Position numbers and translations under genes: made by a program
Part shown: piece after piece, positions 42,556-47,293 of the stretch
Numbering within the stretch: position 1 is the first letter of the stretch
Layout: the number at the start of each line of letters is the position of its first letter
Source: Escherichia coli
GTDB taxonomy: Bacteria > Pseudomonadota > Gammaproteobacteria > Enterobacterales > Enterobacteriaceae
Reading direction: 5' to 3' (one strand)
Length of the DNA: 64,000 nucleotides
NCBI RefSeq assembly: GCF_003018255.1
Contig: NZ_CP027440.1
The notes under the pieces: generated by a model
Databases searched by the model: none
Seen by the model: only the letters and a program-made list of their open reading frames with translations
What the model was told of the DNA's origin: nothing

Positions 42556-43440
42556 CTATTGCTGGTCCGATTCTGCCAGGTCATCTTGGTCCTGGCCCAG
42601 GAGCGATAATTCCAACAATGCGTATCGGTGCTCAACAAAGTTATGAACGTTGTTGGCAACCGCCAGTTTGAACAGTGCCGTGGCGCTGTCCAAATCCCCC
42701 AGACTTAGGTAGTACTTACCTAAATAGAAGTTGGTTTCACTGAGATGCTCAGCGAGCGAGGTGTTATCCGTTGCGTCCGCCTTGAGCCTTTCCATTAACG
42801 TTTGTTCGCTAATGTTGCCCAGGTAGAACTCGACAATGTTCCATCCCCACTGTTCCTTATCCGATTTTTCGAAGTGCTGTTTCAACACTTCTTTAGCCTG
42901 CTTCTCATCGAGCTTCTGCTCGGCGAGATAAAGCCACAGACTACGGAAAGGATCATTGGGATCGTCTTGATAAAACGCCAGCAGATCATCTTGCGCTAAC
43001 TTGTCACGACCGCCGTAATATAATGCGATCCCGCGATTCAAGTGCGCGTAGTTGTAAGTTGGATCAAGCTCAAGTACAGAATCAAACGCTTCATAGGCAG
43101 CATCAAAATTGCCTGCCTGCGTTAAATATATGCCTAAGTAATTGAATACTTCAGGCATATCCGGTCGGATTGCCAGCGCTTGCGAAAAATCGTTACGCGC
43201 TAATGCCCTCAGACCGAGACTATCATACAACACTCCGCGCTCATATAAAAGCTGTGCGCGTTCGTCATCGGTTAAAGCCCGACTGGCAAGGATTTGTTCC
43301 ATACGTGCCAGAATCACTTCCTGCTGTAAAGTCGGTTGCAATGGTACCGCGAGGACTTCACTTTTACGCCAGGAAGTATTACTGCATCCTGCAAGCGTAA
43401 GTGCTGTCGCAACGAAACACCAGCGCAAAAAAGGCTTCAT
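42556..43440 (-). CDS. nlpI: TPR-repeat lipoprotein
   Basis: 294-aa [22 protein letters not shown] with lipobox. Confidence 0.92.
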
Positions 43441-43548: not shown

Positions 43549-45684
43549 TTACTCGCCCTGTTCAGCAGCCGGAGCTTCCGGTGCTGCAGCAGGTTGAGAC
43601 TGCTCAGTCGCTTCTTTAATGCTCAGACGGATACGGCCCTGGCGATCAACTTCCAGAACTTTCACCGGTACTTCCTGACCCATCTGCAGGTAATCGGTCA
43701 CTTTCTCAACGCGTTTGTCAGCGATCTGAGAGATGTGTACCAGACCTTCTTTACCGCCGCCGATGGCAACAAATGCGCCAAAGTCAACGATACGGGTCAC
43801 TTTACCATTGTAGACGCGGCCCACTTCGATTTCTGCAGTGATCTCTTCGATACGACGAATAGCATGTTTCGCTTTCTCGCCGTCGGTCGCTGCGATTTTC
43901 ACAGTACCGTCATCTTCGATTTCGATGGTGGTGCCAGTTTCTTCGGTCAGAGCACGGATAACAGAACCGCCTTTACCGATAACGTCTTTGATCTTGTCCG
44001 GGTTGATCTTGATGGTATGGATACGCGGAGCGAACTCAGAGATATCGCCGCGCGGCGCGTTGATCGCCTGTTCCATTACGCCCAGGATATGCAGACGCGC
44101 ACCTTTAGCCTGGTTCAGCGCAACCTGCATGATCTCTTTGGTGATACCTTCAATTTTGATATCCATCTGCAATGCAGAGATACCGTCACGGGAACCCGCA
44201 ACTTTGAAGTCCATATCGCCCAGGTGATCTTCGTCGCCCAAAATGTCAGACAGTACAACGTAGTTGTCGCCTTCTTTCACCAGACCCATTGCGATACCCG
44301 CAACGGCAGCTTTGATCGGCACACCTGCGTCCATCAGCGCCAGAGACGCGCCGCACACGGAAGCCATAGAAGAGGAACCGTTGGATTCGGTGATTTCAGA
44401 CACAACACGTACGGTATACGGGAATTTGTCCATATCCGGCATGACTGCCAGCACGCCGCGCTTCGCCAGACGACCGTGACCAATTTCACGACGCTTCGGA
44501 GAACCGACCATGCCGGTTTCGCCTACAGAGTACGGAGGGAAGTTGTAGTGGAACAGGAAGGTGTCAGTACGTTCGCCCATCAGTTCATCAAGAACCTGCG
44601 CGTCACGTGCAGTACCTAGCGTTGCGGTAACCAGCGCCTGAGTTTCACCACGGGTGAACAGCGCAGAACCGTGAGTACGCGGCAGCACACCAGTACGCAC
44701 ATCCAGACCACGGATCATATCTTTTTCACGACCGTCGATACGCGGTTCGCCTGCCAGTACGCGGCTACGAACAACATTTTTCTCGATAGCGTGCAGAATT
44801 TCACCCAGTTCGTTTTCGTCCAGGGTTTCGTCTTCAGCAAGCAGTGTCGCGATGGTTTCAGATTTGATGACATCAACCTGCGCATAACGCTCTTGTTTGT
44901 CGGTGATGCGGTAAGCATCGCTCAGACGAGCTTCAGCCAGTGCAGCAACGCGCGCGTTCAGCGCTTCGTTTACCGGCTCCGGCTGCCAGTCCCAACGCGG
45001 TTTACCGGCTTCTTTCACCAGTTCATTGATGTTCTGAATAACAACCTGCTGTTGTTCATGACCGAAGACTACTGCGCCCAGCATCTGGTCTTCGCTCAGC
45101 AGTTCAGCTTCAGATTCAACCATCAGTACAGCGGCTTCAGTACCCGCAACAACCAGATCCAGTTTGCTCTCTTTCAACTCGTCCTGAGTCGGGTTCAGTA
45201 CGTACTGGTCATTGATGTAACCTACACGGGCAGCACCAATCGGGCCATTGAACGGAATACCAGACAGAGACAGGGCTGCGGAAGCACCAATCATCGCGAC
45301 GATATCCGGGTTAACCTGCGGGTTAACAGAAACCACGGTGGCGATAACCTGAACTTCGTTGACGAAGCCTTCCGGGAACAGCGGGCGAATCGGGCGGTCA
45401 ATCAGACGCGCGATCAGGGTTTCGCCTTCGCTTGGGCGGCCTTCACGACGGAAGAAGCTACCCGGGATACGACCAGCAGCGTAGGTACGCTCCTGATAGT
45501 TAACGGTCAGCGGGAAGAAGTCCTGACCTGGTTTGGCTTTTTTCTGACCAACAACGGTAACGAATACCGCAGTGTCATCCATGCTAACCATAACAGCGGC
45601 AGTAGCCTGACGAGCCATCATGCCGGTTTCCAGAGTCACGGTGTGTTGGCCGTACTGGAATTTACGAACGATCGGATTAAGCAA
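43549..45684 (-). CDS. pnp: polynucleotide phosphorylase
   Basis: ORF track 43549..45771; PNPase N-terminus (M)[20 protein letters not shown] begins at a TTG codon at 45684; KH and S1 domains at the C-terminus. Confidence 0.93.
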
Positions 45685-45930
45685 TGTAATATCCTTTCTC
45701 TTTCTTAGACAGTACCTTACGGCACTGGTGTTAATACCCGATCTTCTGCGCATCCTCGCGACTAATGACAACCCTAACCCAGCTCTATGTGGGTAAAGCC
45801 TCTCATTAGCCGCGCGAACCTCTGCAGCGGAAGATCATTCATAGCAACAATACATTAGTTTCCAGTGAATTGCTGCCGTCAGCTTGAAAAAAGGGGCCAC
45901 TCAGGCCCCCTTTTCTGAAACTCGCAAGAA
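45685..45930 (-). promoter_or_regulatory. pnp leader and rpsO terminator region
   Basis: GC-rich hairpin aaaaaaggggccactcaggccccctttt at 45887..45914 just 3' of rpsO, followed by a long structured pnp 5' UTR. Confidence 0.7.
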
Positions 45931-46296
<366 letters not shown>

Positions 46297-46348
46297 TTAA
46301 GCGGCAGTATTCTACTCGTAGCGACCTGTTATCGCAAGACGGTTAACA

Positions 46349-47293
46349 TTACGCCGGGTATTCAACCACCAGGCGACGAGGCGCAACGCGGCCTTCATCG
46401 TCAATTTCGCCCATACCGATAAACTTGCCGTTCTCACCTTCTGTAACGCGAACCAGTCCTTCCAGCGGCGCACCGGATGTACGAACCGGGTTACCATTTT
46501 TGAAGTAAACAGAAGACGTTAACGGAAGATTCACCACTGGATAGTCCGAAGCTGGACTGTCCATTGGCATCAGTAATGGATCAAGTAACTCCGCAGCCGG
46601 AATATCCTGCTGTTCGGCTTGCTCAACCAGTTCACGCAGATGTTCCAGGGTCACCATCCGTTCAACCGGATATTTACTTACCGCCAGACGACGCAAGTAA
46701 ATAACATGCGCGCCACAACCGAGTTTTTCGCCGAGATCGTCAATGATAGTGCGGATATAAGTGCCTTTTGAGCAGTGAATTTCCAGCTCCAGCTCATTGC
46801 CTTCATGGCGAATAAACAGCAATTCATAAACGGTAATCGGGCGCGCTTCACGCGGAACTTCAATGCCCTGACGCGCGTATTCGTACAGTTTTTTGCCCTG
46901 ATATTTCAGTGCTGAATACATCGAAGGGATCTGTTCGATATCGCCACGGAAGGTATCCAGCGCCGCCGCCAGTTGCTCTGCACTAAAGGTTACCGGACGT
47001 TCTTCAACGATTTGTCCGTCGGCATCAGAAGTATCGGTACGCTGTCCAAGACGCGCAATGACCCGATAACGTTTGTCGGAGTCCAGCAGATACTGGGAAA
47101 ACTTCGTCGCTTCCCCGAGGCAAATTGGCAACATGCCGGTCGCCAGCGGGTCCAGCGCACCGGTATGCCCGGCACGGTTGGCGTTATAAATCCGTTTCAC
47201 TTTTTGCAGCGCATCGTTGCTGGACATCCCCTGCGGTTTATCCAGCAACAAAACGCCGTTAATGTCGCGACCGCGACGACGAGGACGACTCAT
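46349..47293 (-). CDS. truB: tRNA pseudouridine(55) synthase
   Basis: 314-aa ORF with the catalytic motif [11 protein letters not shown]. Confidence 0.95.

Follow-up and report, generated by a model that had tools for sequence, protein, structure and literature searches.

How is the level of PNPase set, and on which strand of the DNA do the signals that set it act? PNPase is a major 3'-5' exoribonuclease and a component of the degradosome, and it is required for growth in the cold and for virulence in some pathogens. Its level is set in the 246-nt spacer that separates rpsO from pnp. A first-pass annotation of this spacer had proposed a UUG start codon for pnp, an rpsO terminator hairpin, a leader processed by RNase III and the small RNA SraG on the opposite strand. 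These proposals were followed up in the window, i.e. the whole 64,000-nt stretch of DNA analyzed here. Everything in that proposal was found to be already known, established E. coli biology, and it is held with high confidence that the spacer is the E. coli rpsO-pnp intergenic control region, working as the literature describes.

Identity of the locus and its relation to K-12

The window is E. coli DNA. Over positions 45500..46250, two complete E. coli genomes match it with 100% identity, and the region was found in 5,425 of 5,426 complete E. coli genomes. The gene order on the minus strand is truB-rpsO-pnp-nlpI, the same as in MG1655, and the genes are placed as follows.

46349..47293, minus strand: truB (open reading frame list and RefSeq/MG1655 annotation)
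45931..46200, minus strand: rpsO, ribosomal protein S15, 89 aa, stop codon ending at 45931 (open reading frame list, RefSeq annotation of an identical genome and MG1655)
43549..45684, minus strand: pnp, encoding PNPase, TTG start at 45684..45682 (open reading frame list, RefSeq annotation of a twin genome and MG1655)
42556..43440, minus strand: nlpI (open reading frame list and RefSeq/MG1655 annotation)

The rpsO-pnp spacer spans 45685..45930 and measures 246 nt, the same length as in K-12 MG1655 and in line with the figure of about 245 nt given at first pass. MG1655 is collinear with the window without indels (MG1655 coordinate = window + 3,265,484). Over 45500..46000 there are 4 base differences from MG1655, the sole one in the spacer being at 45827. 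As the window is collinear with K-12 and carries a single spacer substitution, experiments performed in K-12 apply to it. The base at 45827, read on the pnp strand, is C in the window and U in K-12. A U.G pair in the lower stem of the hairpin R described below is thereby replaced by C-G, and the A.C mismatch that K-12 has at this place in SraG becomes G-C. This allele, searched as an exact 61-mer, is present in just 34 of the 5,425 complete E. coli genomes and the substitution is expected to have no functional consequence. Outside the spacer, the pnp gene shows 36 nucleotide differences from MG1655, and PNPase differs at residue 194 (E here, Q in K-12) and residue 626 (N here, T in K-12).

Folding of the whole spacer on the minus strand, for which a stable leader structure had been anticipated, gave a predicted energy of -98 kcal/mol (z -6.2, 0 of 200 shuffles equal). 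The plus-strand fold of 45699..45920 gave -68.8 kcal/mol (z -4.5). Further upstream, the S15 autoregulatory leader of rpsO was found at 46144..46258 on the minus strand (Rfam RF00114, 117.6 bits). A sigma-70-like site at 46309..46337 on the same strand (TTGCGA, 17-nt spacer, TAGAAT) lies inside the end of truB, upstream of the S15 leader, and judged by its sequence and position would be well placed to act as the rpsO P1 promoter.

For comparison, 120 Enterobacterales loci were collected with a search pattern placed in pnp codons 7-16. Of these relatives, 111 yielded the spacer, giving 112 species together with the window. Spacers of 380-535 nt, vs the usual 240-260 nt, were observed in a few Enterobacterales (loci L023, L099, L076, L053, L080 and L112, e.g. 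Candidatus Hartigia and some Providencia), which suggests insertions. An insertion element in the rpsO-pnp spacer has been reported for Yersinia pestis (Fontaine 2016, PMC5029454).

Boundaries of the spacer: the rpsO terminator and the pnp start codon

The two ends of the spacer are defined by the following features.

45887..45914, both strands: bidirectional Rho-independent terminator, T1 of rpsO (minus) and T of SraG (plus)
45682..45696, minus strand: pnp initiation region, with Shine-Dalgarno sequence AAGGA at 45696..45692, a 7-nt spacer and UUG at 45684..45682

On the minus strand the terminator hairpin (45914..45887) reads AAAAGGGGGCC-UGAGU-GGCCCCUUUUUU, which corresponds to GGGGGCC-UGAGU-GGCCCC followed by UUUUUU. 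Read on the plus strand it is GGGGCC-ACUCA-GGCCCC followed by CUUUU. For the minus-strand form the predicted energy is -22.3 kcal/mol (z -3.76, none of 200 dinucleotide shuffles equal), and for the plus-strand form it is -15.7 kcal/mol (z -2.1). Of the 112 species, 108 have a perfect G+C-rich hairpin within the spacer's first 110 nt. The relatives printed as examples show a GGGGCC-loop-GGCCCC core, with an A-tract before it, a T-tract after it and a variable loop. The MG1655 sraG feature ends at window position 45914, which is the last U of the plus-strand U-run, and T1 of rpsO and T of sraG have been described as one bidirectional terminator (Fontaine 2016, PMC5029454). The hairpin proposed as the rpsO terminator at first pass is thus the one known as T1, now with exact coordinates and a z-score of -3.76. 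A consensus terminator scan returned a plus-strand match with its stem at 45893..45909 and left the minus-strand site unlisted despite its longer U-run and more stable fold, and a simple promoter scan found neither the pnp promoter P2 nor the SraG promoter. Since the minus-strand terminator, P2 and the SraG promoter were all missed, scan negatives at the rpsO-pnp locus are not informative.

At the other end of the spacer, the RefSeq start of pnp is TTG 45684 in the twin genome and the same in MG1655. Among 111 Enterobacterales species the start codon is TTG in 107 and GTG in 4, and AAGG(A/G) is conserved upstream of the start in the relatives. A toe-print dependent on 30S and tRNAfMet has been observed 15 nt from the pnp UUG, and pnp mRNA was lost when the TTG was changed to TGA (Fontaine 2016, PMC5029454). 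Annotation, toe-print, the AAGGA 7 nt upstream and the codon counts agree in placing the start at 45684, as the first-pass annotation had done.

Both boundaries admit another reading. The hairpin at 45887..45914 could be just a 3' stabilizing stem-loop left by processing and no termination site at all. Such a role would fit the protection of rpsO mRNA by the hairpin, the removal of which by RNase E starts rpsO decay, and the fact that part of the transcription reads into pnp (Fontaine 2016, PMC5029454). The element nevertheless has the canonical form of an intrinsic terminator on both strands (6-7 bp G-C stem, 5-nt loop and U-run), most SraG 3' ends map to it as the shared terminator, and it is treated in the literature as the Rho-independent terminator T1 (Fontaine 2016, PMC5029454). 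Stabilization is a role that the hairpin has in addition to termination and provides no alternative to it, so that a purely stabilizing stem-loop is considered very improbable. As for the start codon, the open reading frame list carries the pnp frame up to an in-frame TTG at 45771, and in the window this frame is without stops for 50 codons upstream of 45684. PNPase could on that basis begin at 45771 with 29 additional residues, which would make the leader below 45771 coding. In the relatives, however, the frame stays open for a median of 9 codons upstream of the pnp start, vs 50 here. The codons of the extension furthermore fall within hairpin R, where substitutions are paired and not codon-like, while the RefSeq and MG1655 starts, the Shine-Dalgarno sequence 7 nt upstream of the UUG and the reported toe-print (Fontaine 2016, PMC5029454) all point to 45684. 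With the frame closed by stops in most relatives and the toe-print at 45684, the longer PNPase was rejected, and there is hardly any chance that it is made. The terminator at 45887..45914 and the UUG at 45684 are accordingly retained as the boundaries of the control region.

The RNase III hairpin and the autoregulatory leader of pnp

Between these boundaries the minus strand carries the long hairpin on which RNase III acts, together with the elements listed here.

45740..45836, minus strand: hairpin R, RNase III substrate of the pnp leader, 97 nt, imperfect, 37 predicted pairs
45839..45852, minus strand: pnp promoter P2 region, with candidate -10 TATTGT at 45852..45847 and a start at ~45839 derived by arithmetic
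45753..45755, minus strand: GGA motif in the 3' arm of R (GCGAGGAUG), candidate upstream CsrA site

Hairpin R lies in the pnp 5' UTR, downstream of T1 and P2, and folds at -49.5 kcal/mol (z -6.3). Its core is a helix of 12 bp, formed by 45814..45803 with 45768..45757, that is essentially invariant in sequence. Per-species folds recovered hairpin R in nearly every relative, and both conserved core motifs are present in 110 of 112 species. Two loci, L023 and L100, are without a recognizable 5' core motif.

Conservation of the pairing outside the core was evaluated with a covariance model, R1, that was built from 60 non-redundant sequences and the window's own MFE structure. The model was used for realignment because a MAFFT alignment of core-anchored hairpins left the basal and apical stems out of register, with RNAalifold giving the core alone and 6 covarying pairs; MAFFT on fixed-length leaders had produced a ragged alignment. 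A search with R1 at E<=0.001 mixed sense and antisense matches, and the alignment from it was dropped and the search repeated at E<=2e-8. One sense-strand match was found in 96 of 98 sources (the window and 97 relatives) with scores of 43-99 bits. In the resulting alignment of 95 distinct sequences, standard pairs fill 90.5% of the cells, vs 33-46% in controls with the partners shifted by 1-3 columns. Fitting of the alignment to the structure by the model inflates these pair counts somewhat, but the gap to the shifted controls is large. Double-sided changes were observed in 21 of 36 pairs, all 12 basal pairs covary, and none of 500 shuffles reached any of the observed measures. The hairpin sequence R is confined to Enterobacterales in this sample, a limit that is that of the search pattern's reach.

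RNase III is reported to cut hairpin R twice, at +39 (RIII1) and +77 (RIII2) counted from the P2 start; the 5' fragment is then broken down by PNPase and the pnp message inactivated by RNase E (Fontaine 2016, PMC5029454). The first-pass annotation had associated the terminator hairpin with an RNase III-processed autoregulatory leader. Processing of the leader stands, but the processed hairpin is the one at 45836..45740 and is separate from the terminator at 45887..45914.

Promoter P2 has been placed downstream of T1, and the pnp RNA used in vitro spans 234 nt counted from the P2 start, its last nucleotide being ORF nt 79 (Fontaine 2016, PMC5029454). From these figures a UTR of 155 nt and a P2 start at ~45839 follow. 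The TATTGT at 45852..45847 is a candidate for the P2 -10 by its sequence. Transcripts from P2 would then begin 3 nt before the base of hairpin R. RIII1 would fall at ~45801, just above the invariant core helix, and RIII2 at ~45763. All three positions come by arithmetic from one paper and may be off by a few bases, as the derived cuts lie 38 nt apart and do not give the textbook 2-nt stagger on the predicted helix. A cross-check of RIII1 against rpsO transcript sizes of 404 and 500 nt, counted from the site at 46337..46309, disagreed by ~6-10 nt and was set aside.

Two GGA motifs are present in the pnp leader: the Shine-Dalgarno sequence holds one at 45694..45692, and the 3' arm of R holds the other at 45755..45753. 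This second motif occurs as GAGGAUG in 83 of 110 species. Two CsrA sites have been described in the pnp leader, one of them on the Shine-Dalgarno sequence, and CsrA binds the leader after processing (Fontaine 2016, PMC5029454). The motif at 45755..45753 is a candidate for the second site, and according to the predicted fold it would stay hidden by pairing until the 5' arm of R has been removed by RNase III and PNPase. Under some conditions no effect of CsrA on the PNPase level has been reported (Carzaniga 2021).

In its general design the leader resembles other leaders under RNase III control, such as rnc-era and the rpsO-pnp operons of Streptomyces, Borrelia, Campylobacter and Streptococcus, in which a long imperfect hairpin of the 5' leader is cut by RNase III to destabilize the message; the likeness is drawn from their description. 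Repression of PNPase by RNase III has been reported in several phyla.

Position and activity of SraG

The opposite strand of the spacer encodes SraG.

45699..45914, plus strand: SraG, 216-nt primary antisense transcript (MG1655 b4449, Rfam RF00082; cRT-PCR and Northern blot in K-12)
45687..45692, plus strand: SraG promoter -10 box TAATAT, at -12..-7 from the start T 45699 and between the pnp Shine-Dalgarno sequence and UUG

The gene lies between rpsO and pnp and is transcribed opposite to both. The MG1655 ncRNA sraG (b4449, 3311183..3311398) corresponds to 45699..45914 on the plus strand of the window, and a match to RF00082 was obtained at 45743..45914 on the same strand (162.4 bits, E 2.6e-31, model positions 1-177 of 177, gathering score 50). 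The proposal that SraG is encoded here was borne out by annotation, by the Rfam match and by the ends mapped with cRT-PCR (Fontaine 2016), and a plus-strand transcript in the spacer is documented for a K-12 sequence identical but for one base. The ends of the RNA, which had been left unplaced, can now be set at 45699 and 45914 (+). The RF00082 model represents the older 174-nt annotation of SraG and starts at 45743, whereas the mapped primary transcript runs from 45699. By cRT-PCR with and without polyphosphatase, the primary 5' end was located 42 nt upstream of the older annotated end, giving a transcript of 216 nt, and the extra 5' nucleotides were found to be needed for repression (Fontaine 2016, PMC5029454).

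The promoter and start region of SraG is base-for-base identical to K-12. On inspection of the promoter no convincing canonical -35 or extended -10 was seen; a TG directly precedes the hexamer, lacking the base that usually separates the two, and a TTTACG is located 20 nt upstream. Mutation of the -10 box (PSraGmut), which lies near the Shine-Dalgarno sequence without overlapping it, abolished the 216-nt SraG and raised pnp mRNA and PNPase 1.3-fold (Fontaine 2016, PMC5029454). A longer antisense transcript has also been predicted to start 339 nt upstream of the SraG promoter (Fontaine 2016, PMC5029454), which in the window would be at ~45360 (+), inside the pnp coding sequence.

The complementarity of SraG to the pnp leader sets in 3 nt upstream of the Shine-Dalgarno sequence and extends through R to the rpsO terminator. 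That its 5' end pairs up to 3 nt from the Shine-Dalgarno sequence agrees with the published pairing, which is near this sequence and non-overlapping (PMC5029454). With full-length SraG the 30S toe-print on pnp disappears and pnp mRNA falls, and neither is seen with the 5'-truncated SraG-S (Fontaine 2016, PMC5029454). SraG itself is cleaved by RNase III at mirror sites, and in the SraG-pnp duplex the enzyme cleaves at new ones (Fontaine 2016, PMC5029454). The size of the effect is 1.3-fold on deletion and about 2-fold on overexpression, and no other targets of SraG were found in E. coli (Fontaine 2016, PMC5029454).

Comparison of the two strands

The comparative data indicate that the structures of the spacer are selected on the pnp strand and not on that of SraG. 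In all 62 non-redundant species hairpin R has its more stable form on the pnp strand (median -47.2 vs -30.0 kcal/mol), and the same holds for H2, a smaller stem-loop downstream of R, in 46 of 62. Two pairs of hairpin R stay G.U in 91 and 90 of 95 sequences, respectively, and would read as A.C mismatches in SraG. Of 110 species, just 38 have the exact SraG -10 hexamer, and 57 have a match to TAnnnT. On the antisense strand RF00082 scored above threshold in all 15 genera tested, ranging from 161.8 bits in E. albertii to 58.9 in Providencia. R and the terminator make up most of the model and are what it mainly detects. Since the sense strand needs both elements, a match alone is no proof that SraG is made in a species. 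This caveat leaves the window unaffected, as the K-12 experiments apply there.

It could be argued from these observations that SraG is largely a by-product, with the constraint arising from the pnp and rpsO sense transcripts and the antisense RNA being weak, lineage-restricted and of little physiological weight. The strand bias of R and H2, the conserved G.U pairs, the poorly kept -10 box and the presence of RF00082 matches in every genus tested are all as such a reading would have them. The 5' 42 nt of SraG moreover fold no better than shuffles (z -0.2), and the published effects are small and limited to one known target in E. coli (Fontaine 2016, PMC5029454). In K-12, however, SraG is real: its ends have been mapped, it is lost on mutation of the -10 box with the consequent rise in pnp mRNA and PNPase, and the full-length RNA blocks the 30S toe-print in a manner that depends on its 5' end (PMC5029454). 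The by-product reading concerns the importance and the spread of SraG and not its existence in the window. It is judged possible but somewhat unlikely.

Small stem-loops of the leader

Two further stem-loops are predicted on the pnp strand.

45710..45727, minus strand: H2, second leader stem-loop, CAGUGCC-GUAA-GGUACUG, between R and the ribosome binding site, with a GNRA-type loop GUAA
45844..45878, minus strand: H0, a linker stem-loop of the whole-spacer fold (GCAGCAAU...AUUGUUGC) that separates the terminator from R

H2 folds at -10.9 kcal/mol on the pnp strand (z -3.6) and at -5.9 kcal/mol on the SraG strand (z -0.2). Its sequence is unalignable between genera and the structure alone is conserved. 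It was assessed by shuffle z-scores and a coding sequence control, as aligning via folds would be circular. In the equivalent region of 62 non-redundant species the median MFE was -14 kcal/mol and the median z -2.6 against dinucleotide shuffles, with z below 0 in 98% and p<=0.05 in 74% of the species. The control of the same length from the pnp coding sequence gave a median z of +0.56.

No description of H2 was found in the literature examined, and its structure-only conservation is the sole loose end of any novelty at the locus. What the evidence shows is only that a hairpin is kept on the pnp strand. H2 could keep the freed 3' arm of R off the ribosome binding site after processing. It could also set the geometry between the two CsrA sites; H2 persists in genera without the upstream GGA (e.g. 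Providencia), which argues against a role purely in CsrA spacing. Finally, H2 faces the 5' 42 nt of SraG that are required for repression and could be a structured target on which these nucleate pairing. That H2 has a function of its own within the pnp leader is regarded as doubtful.

The region of H0 in relatives gave a median z of -1.85 against dinucleotide shuffles, with z below -1.64 in 62% (n=60), and H0 appears more weakly supported than H2. Because it overlaps the DNA of promoter P2, H0 would be present on the sense strand in P1 read-through transcripts alone.

Discussion

The results can be combined with the published experiments into a scheme for the control of pnp, in which positions, stabilities, conservation, covariation and strand bias were computed and the steps of cleavage, binding and expression are taken from the literature. 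No feature of the sequence speaks against this scheme. Transcripts from P1, the rpsO promoter, would mostly end at the terminator at 45914..45887, with some reading through into pnp, and the other pnp transcripts would start at P2 (~45839), just upstream of hairpin R. RNase III would cut both arms of R and PNPase would digest the short 5' fragment still paired to the message. This digestion would expose a monophosphorylated single-stranded 5' end and thereby lead to decay of pnp mRNA by RNase E. The same digestion would uncover the GGA site in the 3' arm of R, and with this site and the GGA of the Shine-Dalgarno sequence CsrA would block translation from UUG 45684. The outcome would be that PNPase limits its own synthesis.

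On the opposite strand SraG would be transcribed from a promoter with its -10 box between the pnp Shine-Dalgarno sequence and start codon, and would end at the same hairpin read backwards. Pairing of SraG with the leader to within 3 nt of the Shine-Dalgarno sequence would prevent 30S binding, and the duplex would offer new sites to RNase III, with pnp mRNA being modestly lowered as a result. Other cis-antisense RNAs that have a bidirectional terminator in common with a convergent gene, such as those of the GadY/gadX type, with 3' overlaps, and SymR/symE, with a 5' overlap, are likewise fully complementary to their targets, and the likeness lies in the action on translation initiation and in RNase III-dependent processing. 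Unlike these, SraG overlaps the pnp 5' leader and the rpsO 3' end at once and uses the terminator of the upstream gene.

Across Enterobacterales the UUG start codon and the 12-bp core of hairpin R are essentially fixed. The rpsO-pnp locus is a textbook case of layered post-transcriptional control, in which termination and read-through, RNase III, PNPase, RNase E, CsrA and an antisense RNA come together.
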